Shown: positions 37,334-61,720 of the stretch, in pieces
How the letters are laid out: each line of letters starts with the position of its first letter
Position numbering within the stretch: the stretch's first letter is position 1
From: Azolla caroliniana
Taxonomy: Eukaryota; Plantae; Polypodiophyta
Length of the DNA: 64,000 nt
Assembly (NCBI GenBank): GCA_043228905.1
Contig: JBHGNT010000005.1
Coordinates: forward strand, 14,942,001-15,006,000
Direction of reading: 5' to 3'
The notes under the pieces: model-generated
Databases searched by the model: none
What the model was told of the DNA's origin: nothing
The model's input: the letters and a program-made list of their open reading frames with translations, nothing else
Translations under genes and position numbers: made by a program

Positions 37334-37713
37334 ATTGGTCGAGGAATGTATAATAGTTTAGGAAAATGTATTCACTGTGTTTCCTTTTTATTCTTGAAAT
37401 TGAAATGAAATGATGAGAAATTGTTTTACTTCAGGAAACCCTAATCCCCAATGATTGTGCACATTGGTCAAGGAATGTATAATAGTTTAGGAAAATGTAT
37501 TCATTGTGTTTCCTTTTTATTCTTGAAATTGAAATGAAATGATGAGAAATTGTTTTATTTCAGGAAACCCTAATCCCCAATGATTGTGCATATTGGTCAA
37601 GGAATGTATAATAGTTTAGGAAAATGTATTCATTGTGTTTCCTTTTTATTCTTGAAATTGAAATGAAATGATGAGAAATTGTTTTACTTCAGGAAACCCT
37701 AATCCCAATGATT
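37334..37713. repeat. 129-bp tandem repeat, about 3 near-identical copies
   Basis: ATTGGTC(G/A)AGGAATGTATAATAG starts at 37334, 37463 and 37592. Confidence 0.95.
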
Positions 37714-37862
37714 TTCGACCTTAGATTATGGCTATCCACCTCAACCTTCGTAGAGGTTGAAACAAACAATACCAGAAGACCCCTACATATGGTCACTTTG
37801 ATTGTGATGACCCCGACTTCACATGGGAAATCGTTAAGCCATTGAAGTTGGAGAAAGCTTAG
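37710..37862 (+). pseudogene. SAMS: S-adenosylmethionine synthetase fragment 2 (C-terminus)
   Basis: [48 protein letters not shown] versus [46 protein letters not shown]. Confidence 0.88.
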
Positions 37863-43678: not shown

Positions 43679-44864
43679 GCCTTCCACACTCCACTTTTGA
43701 CTACTGTGTCGGCCTTGGCCGGTCCCAAACTGTCAGCTTTCGGTTCCCTCCTTTTTGACTTGCGCTCGCCTCTCCCTAAGCTCGTTCTGACCTCTAGGTA
43801 GGTCGTTTGCCGAGACCCCTTTCGTACGCATGCTTGCACCTTTGGCCCTTCAATCGATTGTATGCACGCCCTTCATTCCACCCTTTTCCTTCTCCCGGCA
43901 GCTCGTTTCCTTGGTTGGCCTAGATTCACCGCTCCGAGCTCATCCGGCCTCTCCACCCGGTTAGCCGGTCCCGGTTTCCGGATTCACCCCTTCTCTAGTC
44001 GGGGTAGACATCTCGAATGCTGGTCACGACCCGTCCTTCGTTCTGTGTGGCGCGGATTTCGTTCCTCTTGACCGATTGTCGGAGGTTGCACCTTGCCCGG
44101 GCCCGTTGTCGTGTTGTTACGCGCGTGCGTGGAGAACAAGGCGGGACCACTGGGGTCTTGGACCGAGGAATAGGTGAGGAAAAGAGAGAGAGAGATGCTC
44201 ACTCACGTATAGACAAAGAAGCGCACGGGGACGCGTCACAACAACACAGGAGACGCGAGTTGAGAACACTAGGGTGTGTATGTAAAAATATAAGCATGTA
44301 TTTGTATGTATGCAGACAACTCGAACGGTTACAGCCGACCAAGTCGGCGAGGTGGGTGCCGACGCCTGATCACCCACGCACACAAGAGAGCAAGATGGAG
44401 ATTCTGCCGGAAGCACACGGGCGTTCCACGGAGCAAAATCAGCCTCCTGAGAGCCTGCGCAAAAGAAAGCTATGGAGAACAACAGAGAAGAAGAGCTCGA
44501 TCCCAGTCCGACAACACTTCGTTCCCTCTAGCGCGCGATGTCCCCTCTCTCCCGTCTCCCTCTCTTTTATAGCTCAAGGAGGGAGGCCGTTTCACTCGTT
44601 TACATCACATTAATTCTCTGTCCTTTCGGACAGAGATACTCCTCGATTTACCTTATAGAATATTGCTACCTAGGATTTAACCCTTGTGCCTAACTATCTA
44701 CTATACGACAAGGGACATGCCCATGTGTAAGGGCCGGTTCACACACACTATACATGGTTTGCGCCTGGGGACGGTTTTCTTCACGACATCCGCCCCCACC
44801 TAACCACGCATCCACCGGTATGCGCCAAAATTGGGTTCCTATGGGAGAAAACCGATCCTTGCTT

Positions 44865-47690
44865 TTATTCCTCGTTTACCGGTTCATCCTCCGCCTCGGG
44901 CTGCTCGTCGTCGCTGTCCATGCCCCCTAGCTCCGGCTCCCCATCGTGCCATTTCTTGAACGCTTTGATCCTCTTCCCCGCTACCGGTATCGCCATCCCA
45001 TTGCCGTTGGCGCCTGTTACTACGTAAGGCCCGAACCACCTCCTCGCAAACTTCCGCGTGGCCCTGTGTTGATTGTCGAGGCTGCTGTCGTAGACTAGCA
45101 CCCAGTCGCCTTCCTCGATCTTCCTTGGCCTGGACCGGTGTGTTCGGTCGAACCGGGCTTTGTTCCTTATCCTCGCTACTCGAAGTTTCTCTGCGGCTCG
45201 CTCTACGTCCTCCAGCCTCCGCTCGAGCTGTCGAATCCGCGCCGCCAACAATTCCTCCCGGCTCATCTCATCCCTCCAGTCCACCGTGGCCCACGAGGAG
45301 ATCGTTCGCTCTATTGGCATGATCGGCTTCTGTCCGAACATCAGCTCGGTCGGCATGAACCCGGTTACCGAACTGTGCGTAGTCCGGTCCGCCCACAAGG
45401 CATAAGGTAGCAGCCGTGGCCAGTCCCCGACTCAGCCTCCGCACGCTCGTACTAGCGCATTGACAATTGGCCCGTGTCCGCGCTCCACCTTCCCGTTCGC
45501 CTCCGGATTGTACGCTGTGGTGAGCGAAATTTTGACTCCTAGCCAGCCGAACAGCTCTTCAGCCTCTTCTACGTCCAGCTCACCACGGTCAGCCACACTC
45601 TTCCCTACGCACCCGTATCGGCATACTACGTCCTCAATCAAAAACCGGCACACGGCTGCCGTCGTCTTGTTCTGCAGGGCTCGACCTTCAACCTGGTTCG
45701 TTAGATCTTCCCGAGCCAGCACCAGATACCGCATCTGTCCTACCCCCATTGGCATCGTCACCAAATCCACCATCCACTTGAAGTGGACGGGCGGAGGGTA
45801 GGTCGGGTGAAGCTCGTCCCGATGTCGGATCATGGAGTGCACCTGACAGCTTTCGCAAGTCTTCACGAACCGATGCACGTCCCAGTATAGTCCCGGCCAC
45901 CAGTACTTCCCCTTTAGCTTTTCGAACGTGGCCCACGTTCCACGGTGTCCAGCCCACGGGCTATCGTGGTACGCCGCCAGCAAATCCTCTTGTTCCTCCT
46001 TCTTTGCCACCACTCGGAGCGGGATGCCGTTCCTCTTCTTCGGGTGCTTCCATATGTATCTGTCTCGGAGAAAGAATCGGTAGGATTTCTTCCGAATCCG
46101 GTTGGCCTCATCCGTTGTCCATGCCGCGTCCGACGTCATTGTTTTCAGGAACCCGCCGATCTGCAGCCACTCCCCGTCGTACTTGCTCTCGTCGAAATCG
46201 TTAAGCGTTGGAGAGCATACCCTGCCGGTTGTCATGTTAGCCGCCTCGAAGAAGTCCACGCCGACTTCCTTGTCTTCGGAAACCATGCCGCCGTCATTTT
46301 CGAACCTCGCCCTTGAAAGCATGTCGGCCATGGAGTTGTCTTTCCCGGAAATGTGTCGTATTTCTGGATTCAGGGACTTGATGTACGCTATCCACCTGAG
46401 CATTGCCAGGTCCGGCGTCACGCATCCGGAAACCATGCCAAGGATCGGTAGGCAGTCCGTTTCGATAATTACCTCTGCCCCGATCAGGTAGTCTTTATCG
46501 GCCTTTACCGCCGAAACGATACCCCAGAGCTCGCGTTTAACCTGGGCGTATCCTCGCTGTCGCTCGCTGAGGACCTTCGCGCCGAACCGGATCGGGGAAC
46601 GCATGCCGTTTTCGTCCTCTTGGTTGACGACCCATCCGATCCCGATCGGACTCGTGTCTACCGTTATGTAAATTGGAGTGCTCTTTCCGTAGACAGCCTT
46701 CCGGAGCACCGGAGCCGCGGCAAGTGCTTCCGTCATCTTCCGGACAGACTCCGTATGCTCACCTCTCCACTCAAATTTTCGCCCCTTTTTCAGCAACCCG
46801 TACAATGGCTCCGCGATGTGAGCGTAATGCGGGATCCATATGTGGTAGAACTCGCACGCTCCCAAGAACCTCTGAACCTCCGTGACCAAGCTACTGTCGT
46901 TCTTCATTGCAGAGATGGCTTCTACCTTAGCTGGAGACGGTTTCCGGCCATACGACCCGCATAGGTGTCCGACGACCATGATCTGTGATTGCCCGAAGGC
47001 CGACTTTCCCCCGGAGAAGGTGAGCCTCGTGCTCTCCAACCTCTGCAGCACCTTCTCGCAGTCATCGATGTGCGTCGCCACGAATTTCCGGCATCCGTCA
47101 GGTCCGATCGTCTCGTCCTTTTCCTCCACCGCGCATCCCTTGATCGGGACGTCGTCCAAAAACGGCATGGTGATGTCCGGGATACAATCCCTTAGCACTT
47201 TGTTCATTGCGTTCACCATGTGAGCCACCGAGTTCGTCCCTCCTTGCGGCAGGGTACACATCCGTACTAGGCCGAGAGGAGTTCGCATTGTCGTGATGTC
47301 TCTGCTCTCTAAGGCAAGCTGGAACTGATCGTACCCCGAGTAGAGATCACCGACCAAGTAAATCGACCTTCTGGCGAAGGCCTCCGTGAACTCATCTATT
47401 GTCGGTCCAATTCCCGCGTTTCGAATGGTCACCTTGTTGACCGGCTGCAGGTCTTGAATAAAGCACAGCGTGCCGTCCTTCTTCGGCACGGTAAACCACC
47501 GATTCGAGTATGGAGCACTCGACAGTTCGAGGATTCCCATCTCGACCTTTTTCTTTAACAGCTCCATTAGCTTCGGGATGTGAGCTTTGGGTACTGGAAT
47601 TGGTTTGAGACTCCACGGCACATGCGGTACCGTGAATATCACCATCGGTTCCACGACTGTCGAGTCTACGCACCCGATCTCCTCCGGTGA
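44865..47690 (-). pseudogene. pol: pol (RT-RNaseH-INT), N-terminally deleted, stop at 45432
   Basis: ORFs 45432-47654 and 44865-45398 are collinear with pol 30371-33811. Confidence 0.93.
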
Positions 47691-49071
47691 GGTTGCTGGT
47701 TACAACGGCCTCATTCCGTCTTTGCCCGAATCGAGTCTCATATCGCTGCGAGGGCCCGACCCCTCCGATTTTCCCTACTCGCTTGTCCTCCACCAGAGCC
47801 TCGTAGTTTTGACAAGCGGCTTCGACGAAGCCCGTCTTTTCTTCCACCGGGTCACTCCACCCGGTTACCTCCCGGACCCGTTTTTCTGCGCGGTCCACCT
47901 CTTCTTTCCTTAGCCGTGCGCCGGCGAGGCCTTCCAGCATCGTCGGCCAGAACCCAGCTTTGTTCGTCTTCGGGGCCTCGCCACCTCCGACCCGAATACC
48001 AGCTGACGCCAAGTAGTGGACGGTCTCCGCGTGACGAGCCGCCGCCTCCTCCATCAGCCTTTTCATACCCCCTCGCCCGACGTTCAGGTTCAGGGCCCTT
48101 CGGGTCTCGTTGGCGTGCAACCGACCGTTCCACAGGTACACCATGTTGCTTCTCAACGCCTCGGCGAAGTCCCCGCAGTCCTTTCGGATGTGCCCAACTG
48201 CGTCACACCACATGCACCTGTTTTTAGCCAGAAGTCGTCGGTCACAGGCCTGTTCGCCACCATCCCTCCGTGCCTGGGCGATCTGGAGATCCTTTACCAT
48301 CCGCGTAAGCTCCTCCAGAGCTTCTCCCCCGGACGAGCCCTTGACCATGCCGGTTGAAGCCGATCCGGTCTCGAGCCAATGTCGGGTCTCTTCCCTTCGC
48401 GTTGGTGGTGTTGGCTCAAGCTTCCTTGCTGCGATAGAGCCCACCCCTGTCGATCCTTTGTCAACCCATTCCCGCCGTTTGTCGAAACGGCCACAGACCC
48501 TTTTCACCATGGCCCAGTCAGCCGTCAGCCTGTCATCAATCTCCAATAGGAGGCCTACCTGCTCCCGATCCCGCTCGTCAACCGACTTAACAAACAATAG
48601 GACACGGCTTGTGTCCAGAACGACCCGATCAAGCACCGAGAGGCGCGCGAAGCGTTCCTCAAACTCCCGAAGGAGCACTGACGCGTTCCTTCCTTTGTCG
48701 GGGGTCTCCACCCACTCCATGAAGTCCCGCTTTGAAAGTCGAAGCGCATCTTCAAGCTCGTATCTTTCGAGGAGCCGACCTTCGAACTCCTCCCAGGTCT
48801 GGCTCTCAGCCCGTACCTCGAGCACCTCCGTATGGATGCCCGACATCGCCACTCGAGGGAATCCGGCCAGACGCCTCTCTTCCGGAATGTCCCTCATTAC
48901 CATCTCAGCCCGGTAGGACGCCAAGTAGCTCGTGGCATCCTTCCCACTAAACCGGCCGATCGTACCGACAACCGCGTCGATAGCCCTATCAAGGGCACCG
49001 GAGCCTTCGCGAGCACTCACTATACGGTCCACAGCCGAAGCCATGGCTTTTGCAAGGTCCGACCCCCTCAT
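47691..49071 (-). pseudogene. gag: gag, truncated before the protease
   Basis: MRGSDLAKAMASAVDRI...CMWCDAVGHIRKDC; homology to element 1 ends after RRNEA. Confidence 0.92.
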
Positions 49072-49825
49072 CTTCTACTCCTCTGCCGCCTGTTCACGTC
49101 GGGTTCACCAAATATGTCGCGTTGTTACGCGCGTGCGTGGAGAACAAGGCGGGACCACTGGGGTCTTGGACCGAGGAATAGGTGAGGAAAAGAGAGAGAG
49201 AGACGCTCACTCACGTATAGACAAAGAAGTGCACGGGGACGCGTCACAACAACACAGGAGACGCGAGTTGAGAACACTAGAGTGTGTATGTAAATATAAG
49301 CATGTATTTGTATGTATGCAGACGACAAGAACGGTTACAGCTGACCAAGTCGGCGAGGTGGGTGCCGACGCCTGATCACCCACGCACACAAGAGAGCAAG
49401 ATGGAGATTCTGCCGGAAGCACACAAGCGTTCCACAGAGCAGAATCAGCCTCCTGAGAGCCTGCGCAAAAGAAAGCTATGGAGAACGACAGAGAAGAAGA
49501 GCTTGGTCCCAGTCTGACAGCACTTCGTTCCCTCTAGCGTGCGATGTCCCCTCTCCCCCGTCTCCCTCTCTTTTATAGCTCAAGGAGGGAGGCCGTTTCA
49601 CTCGTTTACATCACATTAATTCTCTGTCCTTTCGGACAGAGATACTCCTCGATTTACCTTATAGAATATTGCTACCTAGGATTTAACCCTTGTGCCTACC
49701 TATCTACTATACGACAAGGGACATGCCCACGTGTAAGGGCCGGTTCACACACACTATACACGATTTGTGCCTGGGGACGGTTTTCTTCATGACACCGTTT
49801 CAATCCGCCTTTCCGCATGCCAAAG

Positions 49826-51060
49826 TTAGCTTATTAGCTACCTCCGAATATGACCATACCATAATAACTAATTACCTACCTTAGAATATGACCATAGCTA
49901 ACTAGCTACCATAATAGCTAATTAGCTACCGAGGAATATGACCATAGCTAACTAGCTACCCGTAATAGCTAATTAGTTACCAAAATAGCTAATTAGCTAC
50001 CTCAGAATATGATGACCATAGCTAACTAGCTACTAGTAATAACTTAATAGTGATTGCCAAAAGCTAATTTAGTTATTATCAGCTAATTCGCTACCAGAAT
50101 AGTTAATTCGCTACCTAAGAAATTTCGAACATAGCTATTTAGCTACCATAATAGCTAATTAGTTACAAATCATAGCTATTTAGCTACCACAATAGGTAAT
50201 TAGCTGCCTATGACAATAGCTAATTAGTTGCTTATGACTATAGCTGATTAGCTACCAAAATAGCTAATCCCCTACCAGAATAACTAATTAGCTACCTAAG
50301 AATATGAGCATAGCTATTTAGCTACCAGAATAGCTAATTAGCTACTTAAGAATATGAGCATAACTATTTAGCTACCAGAACAGCTAATTAATTGTGTATG
50401 ACTATAGCTAATTAGCTACCAAAATAGCTAACTAGTTATTCCTAATAGCTAATTTAGTTATTACCAGCTAATTAGTTACTAGGATAGCTAATTAGTTGCC
50501 TCTGACTATAGTTATTTAGCTAGCAGAATAGCTAATTAGCTACCTAAGAATATGAGCATAGCTATTTAGCTACTAGAATAACTAATTAGCTGTGTATGTC
50601 TAGGTAATTAGCTACCAGAATAACTAACGAGCTAATTAGCTGCATATGACTATAGCTAATTAGCTACCTGGATAGTTAACTAACTATTCCCAATAGCTAA
50701 TTTAGCTATTACCAACTAGTTAGTTGCTAGGACAGCTAATTAGCTACCAATCATAGTTATTTAGCTACAAGAATAGCTAATTAGTTTCCTATGATTATAG
50801 CTAATTAGCTACTAGAATAGCTAACTAACTATTCCCAATCGCTAATTAGTTATTACCAACTAATTTAGCTACTACCAGATGTTTAGCTGCCAAGATAACT
50901 AATTAGCAACTAGAATAGCTAATTAGCTACCAAAATAGCTAATTAGCTGCCTATGACTATAGTTAATTAGCTACCAAAATAGCTAATTAGCTGCCTATGA
51001 CTATAGCTAATTAGCTACCAATCATAGCTATTTAGCTACTAGAATAGCTTATTAGTTGTT
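49826..51060. repeat. array of palindromic TAGCTAATTAGCTA units with short variable spacers
   Basis: Directly visible, dozens of copies. Confidence 0.95.
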
Positions 51061-51134
51061 ATAACAGGTTTGGAGCATATCTAATCAGCTAATCAATATG
51101 TCCATTTTATTACACTGGTCAATTTATTTATTAG

Positions 51135-52944
51135 GTTCAGGCGAATGCATCCAAATATCAAAGTTCAACTACAAGCATTCAAGTCTCTTAAGCCACGCTT
51201 TGTGAGACACTTGAAGGATTGATACATATGTTGTTGCATTTACCATGTACAAATGGGTTTTCTCAAGGACTCTATTAATTTACTACGTCACCATAGCGCC
51301 TCCCTAACTAATGTAGTTTGTAGTTGTGAGTGCCCAATTTGTCGATCAAGCATGCAAGAGCACTGTAAATCATCTGAGCATGTTATCTCTTCCATGAGTT
51401 GCTTTTTAGATTCAGTATTGTGTCCAAGAGAAATTGAGGCTATCTTCCACAGTCATAAATGTGTCATGGGTTTATGTCAAGATTGTGGCCCTAGTAGATT
51501 TAGGTGGTGTCCAAATGAATTGAGTAGTGAAATATTAATCTCTGTCATGTTATTTGAATCAGTTGACACCGATTTCGAAGAAAAGGTGTGTAAAAGAAAG
51601 GAGCTAGTTAGGAAGTTGCTTAAACCAAGGGATTTGGCGTCTCTAGGAAAGTTCATTAAACACAACTTCATTTATTCATGGCAAGCCCATCAATTTAAGA
51701 CTTGCAGATCTGATTTTCCAAATGATGTAGTAGCCTCAGTAGTAGATTTCGTAGAGAATTATACTTTCAAGCAGCAGAATGAAATTCAATCTATGCATTG
51801 GTGTTCAGCGCAAGTAATCATTTTTTTGCACATAACATATTTTCGAGTTTTAGGTGATGTTAAAAAAGTAATTCATTTTTTTATTTCAGATGATAAGAAG
51901 CATGATACCTTGTTCGTCCAACATTGTTTTAACTTACATTGGCAATGGTTATTAGCTAAACGTTTGGAGCTTACTCAACATTGGGCTTGGTTTGATGGAG
52001 CTGCGTCACAATTCAAGGCTAGACATCCATTTTATTTTGTGGGGAGGTATCCTGCTATAACAGGTTTGGAGATGAGATGGAATTTTTTTGGGTCTGGCCA
52101 TGGTAAAGGTGAACATGATGGCGCAAGTGCTGTTATAAAGCGGGCACTTACCCATGAACAACTAAAGCCAGATGGTTTGCAGATGAATTGTGCAGCACAT
52201 GTAGTTGAATTTTTAAGAGCTAATACGTCAACGAGTGCAACTAGTGTTTATTCCTCGCAGGTATGAGATATCAAACTTGAATTTTGGGAAGTGAAGATAG
52301 ATGAAGTTAATAGGGAGAAGTCTTGGGAGTGTCAAGGAATTCCCGAATTGCGATCTCTCCATGTTGTTCGCGGTTATTCTAAGTTGGATGGTCATTGTAT
52401 TGCTGTTAGAGAATTAACTTGTTGTTGCTTCCATTGTGTGTAGGGAAATTGGAGGTATTGTTTAAACAAAGCATATATTCAGAATTGGGAGTATCATACA
52501 TTGAACGATAAGGAAGTAGTTGATGGAGAAACAGAAAAGAATGATGACTTCACATATCAAGGACGTGGAGATACTTTGAGTGATGTCTTAAATGTTGGGG
52601 ATAATTTCGCTGTTAATGCAGAAGAAGGCAATTTAGAGGGTGTTGATTTCTATATATTGAAGTCCACGGTTAGTAAACAGTGTGCAACGCAGAATATTGT
52701 AGATGCTTGGGGAAATGTTGTATCTATCGGGACATTCCACATCGAAAGTATTTTTTATGCAATACTAGATGATTACGATTATGTGTATAGGCTATTAGAA
52801 GACAAACCAGTGGCGTACATGTACTCTCATTTGGTCAGGTGCATCAACGTCCCAATGTCGCAATACAATAGCTGCTCAGGTTAATACACAGTTAATGCTA
52901 ATGTGTATGAATGTATTTACAACAGTATGCCATGGAATTTGTAG
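51135..52944 (+). pseudogene. Sola2-like DDD transposase, last exon, four in-frame stops and no frameshift
   Basis: After acceptor TTAG at 51134: FKSLKPRFV..CCCIYH, Cys-rich region, VVDFVENY..QNEIQSMHW, ISDDKKHD, WFDGAASQFK, WNFFGSGHGKGEHDGASAVIKR, RELTCCCFHC. Stops at 51220, 52264, 52441 and 52882. The superfamily assignment rests on recalled motifs. Confidence 0.75.
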
Positions 52945-53340
52945 CTACAAGTAGCAATTACCAGTTTTCTTATAAAACAAACAAAGCACATGTACTGCAA
53001 ATAAACAATTAAATAAATTCGTTTGGGAGTTTTTTTTTATATACAGTCTACTTTTTGTGCTTCTTTCTCAATAAAATCATGTGCCTTTTTTATATACAGT
53101 CTTCTTTTTGTTCTTCTTTCTTAAAAACCAGTTTAATAATATCGTTTAGGGTTCTTCTTTCTAATATACAGATTTACTCAAGTGAACCATGTACAAGTTA
53201 AAATAGTTTGCATAATTTAAGAAAAAACACTATCATGAAATTAGCAGTTCTGAACATACTCTTAAAATTACACAGTAGATAAGTTACTCAAAACAAGCAA
53301 TTTAATTCTTCATTGATTAATCTGTGATCAAATTACATAT

Positions 53341-54069
53341 TCATAACATCCCATTGGCAATGTCTACAAATCGCCTATAAACAGCTAAGGTCTTGCTGGT
53401 CAGTAGAACTTCTCTACATATATAATCTGCATACCAAGCTTGGTATGGAGTCCACAACCATGTAGTTAGTTGGCAGCTCAATGTTTTCACCAAGTAGTGT
53501 TCAACCATTTCCTCGGGTAGAATGAGACAACATCTGCGTATGTTGAAGTAATGCCAGAAATGTTCTGTATTCAGAATCAATGTATTCTCGGCATTATAAT
53601 CTGGCCACGTAGCCCAAAAATCAGAAAGTCTTTTGAATCTTGCAACATCCTTCTACTCACAATTCTCTCGTGTCCACTGACCCTTGAAATGTTGTCGCCA
53701 ATTTAGGAAGAATCTTTCTACACACTTCCTCACATCTGTACGTAGTTTTTCACTCCAAATAAACAAATCAAAGTATTGCACAACCCACTCTAGAAATTGA
53801 TTTGTGTCCCTCCTTGGTGTCATATATCGCACACTCATCAGGACTTTATCAAGCTCCAAGATCAAGGCTCTTCTTTCGACTTCTAATGGTTTAGGTTTCC
53901 ATTCCTATAAATGAGCCTCTGTTACACCAATTACTGGTAGCACACGATCAATTTCAATCAACTCAGGTTTTGTCGGCACAATTGGTGTCCTTTTCCTCTT
54001 CAAACCCCTGGTCGACTGTGTTGGGCGTGACTTCACATTCTGGTGCTCTTGTGTTGTCGACTTAGTCAT
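53341..54069 (-). pseudogene. accessory ORF B of unknown function (242 codons, two in-frame stops)
   Basis: MTKSTTQ..GLKRKRTP (NLS-like) continues in one frame through track ORFs 53653-53865 and 53341-53580; Trp/aromatic-rich and globular-looking. Confidence 0.6.
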
Positions 54070-54257
54070 TGGCTCGGTGCATGAACAACATGAACATAAT
54101 TATCTTGGAGAAACATCATAGAGTTCCATTACATAATGTGGATCAAGCAACAACCAATTTGAGGTTTTACTTGTCCAAATAGATCATAGTAAAACTTCAT
54201 AAAACCCTAGGAAAATCTCTAACAATCATATCCCACTAATAAGTATTTCGCTCCAAT

Positions 54258-56889
54258 TCAAGAGCCCCTTGACCGAGTAACTGGTCTTGTCCCCAATCGT
54301 TGCACTTTCTTCAGCCTTTTTCTAACTTGTTGCCCATTTAGCCTTGCTTCTTTGACCCATTGCGCAAGTGTGTCCAGTACAGTGGGATATGTTTGGAGAT
54401 TATCAGTAGTTGGGCTCAGTGGGGTGGAATCAAGGTTTTGGGATTCGAAGAAATGTTGCATCAAGTGTTCAAAAACAATATTGTTGTGAACCTTAGATTT
54501 ACATGTTGTTTCCAATATTTCATGGCTTTCCACATCGTTGCCTAATTCAGTACCATCTTCCAAAAGAATAAGGTGGAGCTGATATGAAGGAGATGTGATA
54601 GCAGGACTCTTACTTTCAACCACGTTGGCAACTATCTCCTCATCGGTTGCAACATCATCAACACCAGATACCCCATGAGCCCTCCTTAATCCAGAAGATT
54701 CTACGACAACATGGTCGCTAATTAGCTACATCTTAGCTAACTCGCTATTCTTCTACACTAATTAGCTACTTCGCTTAGGTATGGTACTAGCTAATTAGCT
54801 ACCACTTAGCTAATTAGCTACTCTTTGTCAATATGGTGGCAACTAATTACCTACTCTACTAAAGTATGGTAGTAGCTAATTAGCTACCAATTAGCTAATT
54901 AGCTACTCAACTAAAGTATAGTACTAGCTAATTTGCCACTATAACTAAAGTATGGTAGTAGCTAATTAGCTACTCAGCTAAAGTATGGTAGTAGCTAATT
55001 AGCTAAGTGGTAGATAATTAGCTATTGTACTAAACTATGGTAGTGGCTAATTAGACCACTGAACTAATTAGCTAATGTACTAAAGTATGATAGTAGCTAA
55101 TTAGCCACTATAACTAAAGTATGGTAGTAACTAATTAGCTACAACTTAGCTAATTAGCTACTGTACTAAACTATGGTAGTAGCTAAATAACTACCACTTA
55201 CCTAATTAGTTACTTAGTTAAAGTATGGTAGTAGCTAATTAGCTATTGTACTAAACTATGGTAGTAGCTAATTAGCTAACACTTAGCTAATTAGTTACTC
55301 AATTAAAGTATGGTAGTAGCTAATTAGCTACTCAGCTAACGTATGGTAGTAGCTAATTAGCTACTCAGCTAACGTATGGTAGTAGCTAATTTGTAGTCGA
55401 ATTTTCCGTTGGGGATCCAACGACCCCTCAATTTCAAGCTCATGTTGAGCAACCTGTTCCAGATAATGCCTCAGTAGCACATTTTCATGTACAAGTTGTT
55501 TATAACATATTACATACTAGCAAAACAATAGGTACCTAAATCTTATTTCTGATTGTTGTAACTGCCAAAGTGACTTTGCTCTCCATTGCAGAAGCCAATG
55601 TTGCTTTCTCTAAATCAGTCTTAAAAAACTCCAATGTCTCACAGGCTTCATGCACATTTTTTAGCATATAGCTAATCAATGTCTCACTTGTATCATCGAC
55701 ATTGGCTTTCATTGTGTGTCGGTGTGGCGTATACTTGTGGGTTTGTTGGGAGTCGGTAGTTGCATCATCAACTGCCATGCTCCAAAATCTTGCCATTTTT
55801 TGTTGCAAGCTCCCCATCTTCCGACATCTTTCTACCGATGCCTCACCATAAATTGCCCAAGCTACCTTGTACATTTCAGGGTCACGAGATTCCTTCGTTG
55901 TTTTGCAATATTCGTATGCAAAAGCTCTGGCAAATGAAACGGACAACTCATTGTTGACCGGGATCTCTTGATGTACTTCCTGGTGCAGTCTCATGCAGTC
56001 GTCGTACAGGTATAGTCGTACATGCTTGAGCTTGACCTTGCCTTTCACTCTAGGCATTTTATATACTGACATCCAGTCTACATCACTAATCAATCTATCT
56101 GTTAGAACAATAGGGTCAATACCCTCGAGCGACAGACCATATATGTTGTGGAAGTCCTTATTTGTCTTGCAAATTTTTGCGAAGTTCAACACTCTAGGAT
56201 AGGGAGGAACGAGCACTTGAAATAGAAAATCAGTAATTAGAATTGGTGCAAAAACAGAATTTTTAATGTCAATTTGGTGCAAAATTACAACACTTTGAGA
56301 TAGTAATCTGAAATTTGTAATCTGTCCTTTTCAACATGTATAAGAAATCAACCACTTGAAAAATCAAAAACCCTAATCCGAATTTGTCATGAGAATTGGT
56401 GCAAATTTACAACACATTGCGACAGTAATTTGAAATTTGTAATCGGAAATTTGTAATTAGAAATTTGTAACCAGAAACTTGTAATCTCAAATTTGTAATT
56501 AGAAATCGTAAACCACTTAAGGAAAACACAAAGAAACACACCTGCTACTACACCCCGATCTTCGAGACATCCTTGTTTGGGACTCCAACGACTTCGCCCT
56601 ATTCGATTTCTGGGAAAGATGAACAGGCACCAAAGTTACAGACAGTTATCTGAAAGGAAAAATAAATAAAAATAAATATGTAACTAATACATACCTGGAC
56701 GAGCATCGAATTGATCGTGTGTTGTAGCTCTAAAGATGCAATGTTGATCTCAAAGTTTGTGCTGCTACAGGAGCTTCGTCTCCGTTCGTGCTCAAAGTAC
56801 TCCATCTGTTTGGAGTTCGAACTCAAACTCAAGATTATCAGGAATTTGATGACATTCAAGTCGACCTTGATGATGGCATTATTCCCCAA
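54258..56889 (-). pseudogene. accessory multi-exon gene A of unknown function
   Basis: Exon-like blocks at about 56889-56695, 56640-56542, 56217-55536, 55453-55393 and 54700-54258 with GT/AG borders; main exon VLVPPYPRV..LHQEVHQEIP..SFARAFAYEY..VAWAIYGE. Confidence 0.5.
54717..55392. repeat. second TAGCTAATTAGCTA array (unit context GTATGGTAGTAGCTAATTAGCTAC)
   Basis: Directly visible. Confidence 0.95.
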
Positions 56890-58129
56890 GTTCCACTACA
56901 TCAAAAACCAAAGTTCAAATATTTGCGTATTCTCATAAATTAAATGACATGTATCTAACTAATAAAACATTAAATTTCGTAAACCATACTTATGATTTGC
57001 CCACAAAAAACAAGCTAAACAAATAGCTAATTAGTTGTGCCCATTTTAGTAGCTAATTAGTTATAATAGTGTTTCCACTCGCATGCTTTTACCCTTCCGA
57101 ATATTTACTTTTACATGTTACAATGGCAAAATGGTATATATTGTTGTCTCTCATTATAATAAATTTTCTTCTAGACCATGTGCATTACCAATGTTTTGTT
57201 GTTCGAATATAGATACAAATTTACGCATTTTGAATGTTTTGATAACATTGGATAGTTGTCAATTACACATTGTAATGCAGTACACTAATGTTGCTTAAGG
57301 TCATGAATTCATGTTTAATGCGCAAGATGGTTCTTCTTACCACCATTATATATTGCTTTCGTATTTAGATTTTGATCATCAAAGAGATTTAGATTGTTAG
57401 AATGTTAGACTATTAGACTATTGGACTCTACAAAGTTTACCCAAAAAAATTTAGCCTAGGGTAAATCACACACAAACCAGAAGGTAAAGTTGAGCTTGGA
57501 ATGTTTAAGAACCACAAGTATTATTTGGGGATGAACTTAAACTTTATCATATAACCACCATGGATTAGATCTTCCAATTCAATATGAATTACTATAGATA
57601 TCAAGTTACATGGCCGCACCAAAAACTCATCAGAGTTTGTGTCTGGATATCAAATGTGTATACCAAGTTGAACCATATGTTAAGATATAACCACATTTTA
57701 TATTTAGGTATTATTGAGAACTACCCTTATTCAAAAATGTATACCAAATTAATAGACAATGGCAGAAATTTAAGATTTCTCAAATGTAGAAACCTTTGCC
57801 AGGTGGAACTATTAATTGCATTTGTTTATCCATATTTTCCACTAAAAAAATGTTCTTACAACATGTAAATCTCAACCAACTTCTCCAAATACACTCTTAT
57901 TTGAGTTAATGTTCGATTTAAGTTCGTTTTGTTTTGAGTAACTCCAAGTTTATAAATATGCATTCTATAGCTAGCAAACATCTCTCTTAGTGGTTAGTGC
58001 AAGTTAATATAAAAAACTTTAACTAGATTGAAAAACATGTGATACTAGTGTATCTGGTTTTTGTACACCGTCTAAATTTACATCAGTGTAGAAGGAGTCT
58101 AAACATGGAATGTGCTATCCTTCCACTTG

Positions 58130-58920
58130 TGAACACGAACATGTTAGTTGTTTTGTCAGCTTGGTCCGGCATGATTGATCCCCCTTCTTCCAGACGTTCC
58201 GCCTCACGCGTTTGAAACGTCTTGCCAATAGTAGAAGTTGTGTTCTCAGGGTTGTTCTTGGTTGTGTCGGCCTTGGCCGAATTAGCCTCGTCTTCCACGA
58301 CCTTGCCCCTTTCCTCCATCCGAATTTGAATAGAGCATGTGTCCTTCTTGCACATTACTCCTCGTTTGGACGTGATTTTCTTCGACCAATAGCATCAATT
58401 GGAGATCAAAGAATGAGGGAGGATTCTCCCTTGTGAGGACGAACGACCTTATTGCATTGAACCAAGGTGCTAGGCCACCGAGGCATATCTGCACCATTTT
58501 ATCGTCATCAATGTTGACATTGATCAACCCGAGGGAGTCACATAGCTCATTGATCTTGAATGTGTAGCTACCGATTGACATATCCCTTTGTTGTATGTCG
58601 TTTCCACTCTTGGCGGAGTTGAAGCTTTCGTGCAGTAGTGTTGGCCACGAAGATCTTTTTGAGGTTTCCCCATGCCTCTTTTGGCATTTTGGCCTCTCAG
58701 ATATAGTCGAGCATATGATCATGAACACATGATGCAAGGCAATACAGCACACGACTTGCCGCTTGCTCCCAAGCTGGGTGGTCGGCATGTGCCAAGTTTG
58801 GTTGATTTTGTTATGCTCCTTTGATGTAACTCCAATAGCCTTGGCTGACAAGGTATTGCCATAACACAAGAAATTATACTCTATAAGCTTCCTCGTCCAA
58901 GATCTGTAGCAGTAACCGAT
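58130..58920 (-). pseudogene. copia gag remnant
   Basis: KINELCDSLGLINVNIDDDKMVQICLGGLAP..PSFFDLQLMLLVEE..GRGRRG. Confidence 0.75.
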
Positions 58921-61110
58921 GGACTTTCTATTGCATTAGGAGATATTACTAAAGAATCAGAGCCTATTCATGTAGTTCTTGGTAATTTAGCTTGTGTAAT
59001 ATCTTTCAATATCATAAGTAGTCCTGAACATCCAATTGTTCTTGGGTTGCCTTGGTTCGAAATTCATAATCCAAAGATTTATTGGAAGAAGCGTGAAATC
59101 ATAGATTCACGAGACAACAACAATTCAAAGCTCCTCACCACATCAACCTCAAAGCTAAAACCAAGAGATATGTCAACTATCTCTCTCGAAAGATTACGTA
59201 AAGAAGCTACAATAGAAGACATGTTTGTGTTTGCAGTTGTCATAACCCCATTTTCAAACCCACAAGAGTCAGAGGTCCATTTACCATCAAAGTATCAAGA
59301 ATTTTCCTATGTGTTTCATAAGGTAAAGGCCACGACACTTCCTGATCATCGACCATATGATTGTCCCATTGATTTGCATGTTGAGAAGGAACCACCATGG
59401 GGACCAATTTATAACCTTTCGCCATCAGAATTGAAAGTTCTTCAAGAATATATTGATGAAAATCTTGAAAATGGCTTTCTTCGACATTCTCAATCTCCTA
59501 TTGGGGCTCCTATTTTTTTTGTTAAGAAGAAAGATGGCTCTTTACGTTTGGTCGTAGATTATCGAGGCTTGAACAAGGTTATGATTCGAAATAGATATGC
59601 TCTACCATTGATTCCAAATCTCTTGGAACGTGTCAGTGGGGCCAAATACTTCACAAGGCTAGACTTACAAGGAGATTACAACCTTGTTCATATTCGCTTG
59701 GTGATGAATGGAAAACTGCTTTTCGCACGCGATATGGTCACTTCGAGTACACAATAATGTCATTCGGTCTTACAAATGCTCCATCAGTTTTCCAACATAT
59801 GGCAAATGATATCTTTCGAGATTTCCTTAATATCTTCACAATAATTTACTTGGATGACATACTAATCTACTCAAAGACACAAGAGGAGCACGATCACCAT
59901 TTCCGACAAGTTCTGCAATGATTATGGGAATTTGGTCTTTATGCCAAACTAGAGAAATGTTGGTTTGACCGCAATCAAGTGGAATTTCTAGGGTATCTGG
60001 TCTCTCCGACAGGTATTTCTATGGATCCAGAGAAAGTACAAACGGTTCTAGATTGGAAGACACCAGGCTCAGTTCGCGACCTACAATGTTTCTTGGGATT
60101 TGGAAATTTCTACCGCAAGTTCATTAGGAGTTACTCAAAAGTTATTTTGCCCCTCACAGAATTAACACAGAAGAACTGACCATTTGTATGGACGTCAAGC
60201 GCAACCGATGCATTTGATAGCTTGAAGCAAGCATTTACATCTGCTCCCATTTTGGTCCACGTTGACCTTCAAAAACTGTTTATCATAGAAGCAAATGCAT
60301 CTGATTTTGCAGTAGGTAGTGTTCTATCGCAAATAGTGCATTATGAGAAATTGCATCCAATTGAACCTGCAGAAATCAATTATGAAATCCATGACAAAAA
60401 AATGTTGGCAATTGTTGATTCTTTCAAACAATGGCGTCACTTCTTGGAAGGTTCTCCCTACCAAATTGTTGTTTACAACGATCATAAAAACCTCACATAC
60501 TTTATAAATGCTCGAGTCCTAAATCGATGACAAGCTCGGTGACCACAATTTCTGACACAGTTCAACTTTGTGATAACATATCGACCAGGAATACAACAAG
60601 GTAAAGTTGATGCCTTATCAAGATGCTCTTATTTTGCACCAAAACCAGGGGACCCAACTTATGACCATCAAGAACAAGTCCTTTTGAGCCCTAGACATCC
60701 ACAATTAATGGTGACAAATGTTGCTGAGACAACTTTGGATTCAAAATTTCTTGACTCTATTCGCTTGAGCATTGGTTCAGATGATTTTGCACAAGATATT
60801 TTAGACCACATTGTTCCAGATCGTGCTTCTTGTTCACGCTCCAAGTTTTCTCGCAAGTTGGCATGATAGGTTGGTTTTTTGAAACAACTGTACTTATATT
60901 CCCAATGAACCTTCCCGACTTGAACTCTTGGATTTTTGCAACAAATGCAGATTCCAGCCAAGCTGTGGGAAGTCATCAACATGGATTTCATCGTTGATCA
61001 TCTTCCCTCCAAGGGACACAACATATTGATGGTGGTTCTAGATTTCTTCTCCAAGCAAGCCCATTTCATACCTGCAAAACCATTGCTTATAGCCAATCAT
61101 GTTGCATTAC
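58921..61110 (+). pseudogene. Ty3/gypsy chromovirus (Tcn1-like) PR-RT-RNaseH remnant plus an integrase fragment
   Basis: [98 protein letters not shown]. Confidence 0.88.
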
Positions 61111-61720
61111 ACCCGATTCTAGATGTATAGAGTAAAATCCGATGCAATGCATTGGATTTTCAACTGAAATTTGATGCATTGCATCGGATTCTAGATGTAT
61201 AGAGTAAAATTCAATGTAGTTCATCGGATTTCAATTGAAAATACAAGATTTTATTTTTATTTTATTTTTAAAATTCATGGGAAAAAATAAAAACAATTTT
61301 CCAAAAACCAAAAAAATAAATAAACAAACAAATCTTGGATTTTCATTTTACTCTAGATACATCTAGAATCCGATGCAGGGCATTAGATTTAAGTTGAAAT
61401 ACAATATTTCAGTGCATTGGATTCTAGATGCATAGAGTCAAATCCGATGCACTACATCGGATTTCAGTTCAAGATCCAATGTGGTACATCAAATTTTAGT
61501 TGAAAATCCAAGTTATTTTATTTTATTTTATTTTAAAATTTTTTAATTGTTTTCCATAAACAAAAAGGAAAAAAATTAAAAAAATCTTCAAATTTCAACT
61601 AAAACCCGATGCATTGCATCAGATTTTACTCTATACGTCTAGAATCCGATGCACTGCATCGGATTCTCGTTGTAAGTCTTGGATTTTCAACAAAAATCCG
61701 ATGTACTACATCAGATTCTT
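61110..61720. repeat. degenerate array of the near-palindrome AATCCGATGCA-N-TGCATCGGATT with T- and A-rich spacers
   Basis: For example AATCCGATGCACTGCATCGGATT at about 61642-61664; CTAGATGTATAGAGTAAAAT is repeated in both orientations. Confidence 0.8.

Follow-up and report, generated by a model that had tools for sequence, protein, structure and literature searches.

A Sola2 DNA transposon family of the fern Azolla caroliniana with palindrome arrays and a conserved coding sequence facing its transposase

Does the coding sequence that faces a transposase inside a fern transposon belong to that transposon, and if so, what might it do there? This question is raised by a 64,000-nucleotide stretch of the Azolla caroliniana genome (contig JBHGNT010000005.1, positions 14,942,001 to 15,006,000; hereafter the window, to which coordinates refer unless a copy is named). 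A preliminary description, made from the letters alone, had proposed a multi-gene, Sola2-like DNA transposon in which a transposase converges with two genes on the opposite strand. The locus is the right-hand 7.3 kb of an old, defective, left-truncated copy of a Sola2 DNA transposon. The family to which it belongs has many copies and recent activity, and the sequence facing its transposase is under purifying selection in four exons and is steadily linked to the transposase among related elements.

The transposon family and its copy in the window

A search of the 523-Mb A. caroliniana genome, in which 150 of 1317 candidates were scored, returned many copies with an open 619-codon frame. Ten young copies, selected for an open (intact) transposase exon 2, were fetched; they are 9.0-12.3 kb long, carry 25-bp terminal inverted repeats (TIRs) starting with GGG at both ends, and are all flanked by a 4-bp duplication that differs in each. 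The two TIRs match at 24 of 25 positions, and their GGG start agrees with the 5'-GRG at which Sola2 termini begin. The TIR pattern had 552 exact matches in the same genome and 0 in the control. Among 100 TIR matches listed, 31 inverted pairs within 30 kb were paired by eye; three were already known, and all of the remaining 28 have a 4-bp duplication. Thus, the intact copies that the preliminary description had proposed to check for TIRs and a 4-bp target site duplication (TSD) have both, with a TSD, AT-rich yet variable, in 38/38 young pairs and additionally in one old copy (L200). None of the 38 duplications is TTAA, the target of Sola3. A 4-bp TSD is given as a defining feature of Sola2 (PMC3627910, PMC10741241). 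Over transposase exon 2, the young copy L041 and each of the other nine share 99.4-99.6% identity; the family has therefore spread recently. An 863-aa transposase is open in nine of the ten copies (a set chosen for an intact exon 2), and six have an open accessory model of 794-833 aa, in which all six introns are bounded by GT-AG. Six short copies (L122-L127, 3.7-8.9 kb) have lost the middle of the element, with differing breakpoints, but still have accessory exons 1-4, a 4-bp duplication and the two ends. The left 1.4 kb of young copies (L023:6131-7550), which lies ahead of the transposase, contains a second tandem repeat, of about 81-83 bp and variable in copy number; two old copies (L184 and L192) have a second degenerate right TIR 34-49 bp past the first.

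Over transposase exon 2, identity between the window copy and L041 is 90.7%, and the window copy belongs to an older subfamily. Its missing left end and 5' transposase exon, already remarked on in the preliminary description, were found neither in window positions 1-49800 nor in the 40 kb upstream; the truncation lies in a first palindrome array (49827-51057; 27 matches to TAGCTAATTAGCTA, spaced mostly at 20 bp), which is a remnant of the transposase intron. At the other side, a subterminal palindrome copy (57050-57063), of the kind that young copies have just inside both ends, is followed by the right 25-bp TIR (57070-57094, minus strand). The right end had earlier been placed at 57080, reading GAG. 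Because all 10 fetched young copies extend 14 bp past that point, the true end of the element is at 57094, where it begins 5'-GGG on the minus strand and still fits GRG. To the left stands a full-length Gypsy long terminal repeat (LTR) retrotransposon (44107-49794, minus strand; LTRs at 44107-44788 and 49115-49794, identical at 655/680 positions), flanked by a 4-bp CCGT duplication and stopping about 30 bp short of the Sola2 remnant. It was rejected as the cause of the left truncation, because a 4-bp duplication of its own flanks it and it is separated from the array by other sequence.

The transposase of the family is encoded by two exons (863 aa), with array 1 inside the intron. Exon 2 of the window copy (51118-52944, plus strand) contains four in-frame stops and a short in-frame deletion, and in it we found the Cys-rich sequence and the motifs initially reported, namely DFVENY..QNEIQSMHW, SDDKKHD, DGAASQFK and WNFFGSGHGKGEHDG. 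Seven Sola2 motif blocks (CxCxxH, CxxxxCxxC, DF(A/S)ENY, IQSxHW, SDDxxH, SDGAASQFK and WxFFxxxHGKxxxDG) occur in the order of the published alignment (PMC3627910 Additional file 10). The family departs from this alignment in the residue before the third Asp: the published rows have Cys, Val, Pro, Asp or Glu at that position, the window family has His. Each of the three catalytic blocks, with the acidic residues D465, D548 and D589, was matched by 0 of 1000 shuffles; a loose late-His pattern was unmatched in the transposase. The core has no Pfam family, and no MULE Pfam hit was obtained. The structure model of exon 2 (pLDDT 84.8) matched integrases and Mos1 at Z 9.8-10.1 (rmsd 3.0-3.5, 144-169 residues aligned), which points to a predicted RNase H/integrase fold. 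Together with the TIRs and 4-bp TSDs, the motif blocks and this fold uphold the Sola2 identity that the preliminary description had suggested.

Downstream of the core, residues 485-609 of the L041 exon 2 model (approximately window 52570-52930) matched at least eight BAH-containing chains at Z 6.2-6.9, including AIPP3, Rsc2, DNMT1, ORC1 and EBS. The BAH domain of AIPP3 was the best match (Z 6.9, rmsd 3.0, 88 residues aligned), with other BAH domains within 1 Z. The BAH-like C-terminus is graded as a prediction because these scores fall under 8; such a tip could steer insertion or read the chromatin of the element itself.

Homologues with species names come from Ceratodon, Calypogeia, Cryptomeria, Taxus and Adiantum, and then from animals. 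A quick tree (56 rows, drawn from homologues outside the Repbase Sola1-3 set; SH-aLRT support, no bootstrap) grouped 42 rows in a single clade (SH-aLRT 96) that includes conifer, liverwort and moss subclades; the window element lies in a 17-row clade within it. This position and the accessory homologues in Adiantum make a fern origin of the element likely. A large, intron-containing plant lineage, as had been proposed, is supported. No relative was present among 24 motif-pattern matches in viral contigs, and a search of the A. caroliniana genome with P0009 returned this Sola2 family only.

The facing accessory gene

Minus-strand coding remnants at 53341-56805 do face the transposase, as had been claimed; they were described as two convergent genes, and in our judgement are probably one spliced gene with a predicted exon 6-7 joint. 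In L041, six minus-strand exons splice in frame into a 618-aa product, and the use of a phase-1 donor inside exon 6 yields an 807-aa product ending in the NIF-like exon. The predicted order is a new N-terminal domain (N-domain), a coiled coil, a RING-H2-like finger, an acidic linker and an NIF-like domain. The window copy retains, all on the minus strand, exon 1 (56695-56805), which carries the predicted start codon; exon 2 (56542-56598); exon 3 (55536-56214; 87% identity to L041), which encodes the N-domain without a recognised family; and a remnant of exon 4 (55389-55453) from the coiled-coil region. The RING exon (exon 5) is deleted from it and is present in 10/10 fetched old-subfamily copies. 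Palindrome array 2 (54715-55388, 16 matches) occupies the intron predicted to separate the RING exon from exon 6, and is followed by exon 6 (54236-54700), with its acidic linker and basic tail, which is in frame with exon 5 in young copies. The last exon, exon 7 (53341-54069), encodes the NIF/FCP1-like domain, in which ELDKV replaces DxDxT; its 5' part is deleted and it has two stops. Exon 7 of L041 also contains a 39-bp in-frame repeat (L041 4930-5010) by which the protein length shifts in 13-aa steps, and accessory intron 2 is filled by a 14-bp repeat (L041 8950-9400; window 56289-56509).

Evidence on splicing comes from contigs of two runs of one study (X1 and X2), whose RNA origin is a software guess and which derive from relatives, since they are mostly 85-99% alike. 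Introns 1-3 are absent from these contigs, with GT-AG at the intron ends; for intron 3 this is seen in both runs, and for introns 1 and 2, which flank exon 2, in X1. Contig coverage stops before joints 4-5, 5-6 and 6-7, on which the contigs are silent. One X1 contig also skips roughly the transposase intron, with 12 letters between the two sides. A less probable alternative, though a possible one, is that two separate genes are present, one for a 618-aa N-domain/coil/RING protein and one for a distinct NIF-like protein: the frame through exons 1-6 stays open up to a stop at 618 aa, so that exon 6 terminates the chain if its internal donor is unused, upstream ATGs precede the NIF frame, and the NIF domain was not seen in moss-type loci. 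However, the phase-1 donor in exon 6 is kept in 9/9 old copies that hold that stretch and the matching phase-1 acceptor in 3/4 that reach it, whereas the alternative acceptor is lost in old copies; moreover, the Adiantum models and P0166, which are gene predictions, join RING and NIF in one chain.

Exon 7 scored 31.1 bits against Pfam NIF (cut-off 21.8), with UBLCP1 as the closest solved relative (E 8e-17) and a Streptophyta cluster as the best Atlas match (0.93). UBLCP1, SCP/CTDSP, CTDNEP1 and TIM50 share this NIF/FCP1-type HAD domain; in contrast to these, the catalytic DxDx(T/V) is lost, with ELD (as ELDKV) in the window family and mostly DLN in relatives. The motif was readable in 37/71 homologues, of which 17 have DLN, six ELD and one DLD, and the domain is predicted to be a dead phosphatase. 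In the RING exon, a C3H2C3 ligand pattern is visible in the translation, with x3 between the last two Cys. The N-domain model reached pLDDT 78 and the sequence is 34% identical over 145 aa to P0147 of Adiantum (E 4e-22). For its fold, no Foldseek match was obtained at E 0.001 in PDB and BFVD and the best VIA Z was 3.2, which is not proof of a new fold; the Atlas gave no usable match for the N-domain of the window family. The moss-type N-domain matched an unnamed Atlas cluster at 0.92, with Transposase_32 and ATHILA leads below 0.9. In the linkers of exon 6, L043, L045 and P0193, an acidic D/E-D-x-P/T-L stretch is followed by a basic patch, the rest being unalignable.

Purifying selection acts on four accessory exons. 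In a comparison of the old subfamily with L041, dN/dS was 0.23 for the N-domain (p 4e-9), 0.10 for the coil (p 2e-5), 0.37 for the RING (p 0.01) and 0.29 for the NIF domain (p 3e-7), against 0.18 for transposase exon 2; the linker parts (exon 6 and the start of exon 7) gave 0.64 and 0.55, neither significant.

The linkage of the facing sequence to the transposase, on which the proposed multi-gene element depended, is supported: side, strand and order are the same in fern-type and moss-type relatives, whose transposases are 31-49% identical. In the metagenome scan, the best 80 of 378 confirmed stretches were kept, and 48 of these loci, including all with 5-kb flanks, were scanned frame by frame. 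Among the 21 loci with at least 5 kb downstream, 11 have accessory domains at 4-9 kb downstream, on the minus strand (approximately 9/18 after apparent duplicates were merged by eye); upstream, such domains were found in 0 of 21, and reversed controls reached E 0.18 or worse. Three shorter loci add NIF (L045, L047) or RING (L054), and where the RING and the N-domain were both found, the N-domain lies beyond the RING, matching the window family. RING matches outside the profile seeds occurred in L059, L061, L066 and L103. In Adiantum nelumboides, 77 related predicted proteins (gene models) were found; 30 combine at least two of the domains in a single chain, and six of them all three; the order is invariably N, RING, NIF.

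Several findings qualify this linkage. Ten of the 21 long loci have no accessory domain match, and NIF was found only in L045 and L047, which are both fern-clade-like. Five RING profile seeds came from scanned loci, so that some RING/N-domain matches are the profile seeds themselves; the RING seeds had first been found at E 2.5e-7 to 0.12 with a profile of the window element, P0193 and P0166. A moss-seeded N-domain profile failed to recover the N-domain of the window family, and the two types are linked by a profile-profile match alone (73.5%, E 3e-5). Furthermore, a TIR scan of 48 of the 80 loci, which are decayed, gave three hits, none GRG-ended and all taken as chance. No credible TIR pair was found around the moss-type loci, so that the accessory sequence and the transposase are there only putatively parts of one element.

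Palindrome arrays and the possible role of the accessory protein

The window contains 44 matches to TAGCTAATTAGCTA at one mismatch or fewer, against 0.02 expected. The palindrome thus marks the region as the preliminary description had stated, but unevenly, in two arrays and one terminal copy (27 matches in 49827-51038, 16 in 54715-55363 and one at 57050). In young copies, array 1 lies between transposase exons 1 and 2. In the reference copy, 87 of 90 motif copies are over 2 kb away from either end, almost all of them within the two introns; the others lie just inside both TIRs (positions 45, 11265 and 11291 of 11335). Related families have their own motif arrays at matching places (27 copies in L043, 14 in L045 and 12 in L048), with repeated motifs in the transposase intron or after the transposase stop; the motif of the window family was found in none of 13 related families, and guessed palindromes for L047 and L114 gave no match. 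CG is depleted in the L023_L024 arrays (observed/expected 0.14 and 0.08, versus 0.45-0.61 in exons), which may follow from motif composition.

What, then, might the accessory gene do? In line with established knowledge of DDD transposases, applied here to the observed features, the transposase would move the element by cut and paste, acting on the 25-bp ends. For the accessory gene, we favour, at about an even chance of being right, a self-targeted, VANC-like anti-silencing or activating role, because the gene is constrained, the motif is family-specific and almost wholly intronic, far from the ends, and this layout recalls that of VANC targets, whose motifs lie in introns and non-coding parts (PMC5735166). 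The accessory protein would bind the intronic palindrome arrays and keep the element transcribed despite host silencing; the N-domain would read the family-specific motif as a dimer, the RING finger would ubiquitinate or evict silencing factors, and the NIF-like domain, without catalysis, would bind phosphorylated targets, for instance the Pol II tail or the proteasome.

Other observations count against this role. The RING exon falls under Pfam cut-offs (E 0.098; 2e-4 to 1e-3 in moss-type relatives). The N-domain has no Pfam hit at E 0.1, and so no match to the DUF1985 or DUF287 of VANC, although a remote fold likeness is possible. Transposase exon 1, in turn, has weak HTH-like hits (E 6.5e-5, below the Pfam cut-off), and this region could be the motif binder instead.

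These HTH-like hits also bear on an unlikely alternative, in which it is the transposase or a host factor that binds the arrays, leaving the accessory protein to some other task, for example the setting of transposase turnover by ubiquitination. UBLCP1, the closest solved relative of the NIF-like domain, is a proteasome-associated phosphatase, which would suit such a task. Against this alternative, arrays specific to each family are also found inside the accessory gene or immediately past it. We regard as somewhat more plausible, yet still tentative, a transposition cofactor for which the motifs would be docking sites in transpososome assembly, with CACTA TnpA, the Harbinger Myb protein and MuDR MURB as parallels. 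The motif copies just inside both TIRs fit this explanation, a palindrome suits a dimeric binder, and convergent two-gene layouts are known among plant DNA transposons. The genes of Harbinger, for instance, are arranged tail-to-tail (PMC12477816). The position of 87 of the 90 motif copies more than 2 kb from either end argues against docking sites, RING-like and phosphatase-like domains would suit host-protein targets more than synapsis, and the second gene of Dictyostelium and Polysphondylium Sola2 is unrelated.

The facing sequence might also have no role for the element, being passive cargo captured from host genes (Pack-type). The NIF-like and RING domains are of host type, as the Streptophyta cluster in the Atlas illustrates, constraint is not significant in exon 6 or at the start of exon 7, and about half of the long loci have no accessory match. 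Nevertheless, the selection test on the four exons largely refutes this explanation, and the shared side, strand and order in relatives with such divergent transposases also speak against it; we consider it very improbable. Beyond the favoured anti-silencing role lies a wider and rather doubtful proposal of an ancient two-gene Sola2 lineage of land plants, in which anti-silencing would have arisen independently of VANC: a DNA-binding N-domain of no known fold would co-evolve with the arrays and bring a RING ligase to the element, and a dead CTD-phosphatase-like domain, added in ferns, would together with the BAH-like domain of the transposase mimic and block the host silencing complex BAH-PHD-CPL2.

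Comparison with known systems and neighbouring sequences

The family shares with published Sola2 elements (PMC3627910 Additional file 10) the motif blocks in order, TIRs and a 4-bp TSD; it differs from them in its intron arrays, conserved facing gene, predicted BAH-like C-terminus and length of 11-12 kb. Sola2 had initially been presented as mainly animal and normally transposase-only, but Sola elements in plants and Sola2 elements with a second gene are both in print. Physcomitrella is listed as having Sola, which is said to be uncommon in flowering plants (PMC10741241), more SOLA is reported in Azolla than in Salvinia (PMC6786969), Ceratopteris has a Sola table row (PMC6890710), and in Cupressus Sola2 is reported to be the most abundant superfamily of DNA transposons (10.64898/2026.07.23.736688), whereas Sola is said to be absent from angiosperms (PMC9804982). 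Moreover, Sola2-Fanzor1 of Dictyostelium and Polysphondylium (PMC3627910) likewise combines a Sola2 transposase and AT-rich 4-bp TSDs with a second gene; that gene is a TnpB-like Fanzor and varies between families, whereas the one described here is unrelated to it and kept across plant lineages.

VANDAL MULEs with VANC (PMC5735166) similarly combine an extra element-encoded protein with family-specific motifs in intronic or non-coding tandem repeats. Unlike them, the window family has a transposase of another superfamily, RING-like and NIF-like domains, and no DUF1985/DUF287 hit. Sola1-1_Ec32 of Ectocarpus (PMC12477816) is a giant Sola whose accessory gene, on the opposite strand, has been proposed to act on the DNA of the element itself; it differs in being a Sola1 and in its ParB-like/amino-methyltransferase gene. 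The Arabidopsis BAH-PHD-CPL2 complex (10.1101/2020.10.15.341198, PMC12663933) brings together BAH, a cross-brace zinc finger and a CTD-phosphatase-like domain, as in the window family. It is a three-protein host complex, whereas the window family has a RING-like finger and a lost phosphatase motif and resembles AIPP3 and CPL2 by domain type only.

Contrary to what had been suggested, the system is not undescribed as a whole, since Sola is known in plants; it is the accessory gene and the family-specific arrays that appear to be so. The literature search found no RING/NIF-like accessory gene and no such arrays in Sola2, although Repbase, the defining paper of 2009 or bioRxiv supplements may hold one. 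The conserved second gene, the arrays and the predicted BAH-like tip appear to set the family apart from known Sola2. Among plant transposons, sequence-specific anti-silencing has been documented chiefly in Arabidopsis VANDAL elements, to which the present family, from non-flowering plants, would add a second and unrelated candidate. Its motif is defined, young copies are intact and numerous related families each have a motif of their own, so that the co-evolution of motif and binder is open to direct testing. In addition, the 77 'hypothetical proteins' of Adiantum nelumboides are explained as likely transposon genes, and curated ends are provided for a superfamily that plant repeat pipelines label without description.

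Elsewhere in the window, fragments of LTR retroelements were recognised by eye at 58083-60179, with a gag-like frame on the minus strand and reverse-transcriptase-like frames on the plus strand. Positions 37340-37715 contain three near-identical tandem units of approximately 125 bp each, and positions 61100-61717 contain an unrelated array of inverted and direct repeats of ATCCGATGCA-like units, possibly the end of another DNA transposon.

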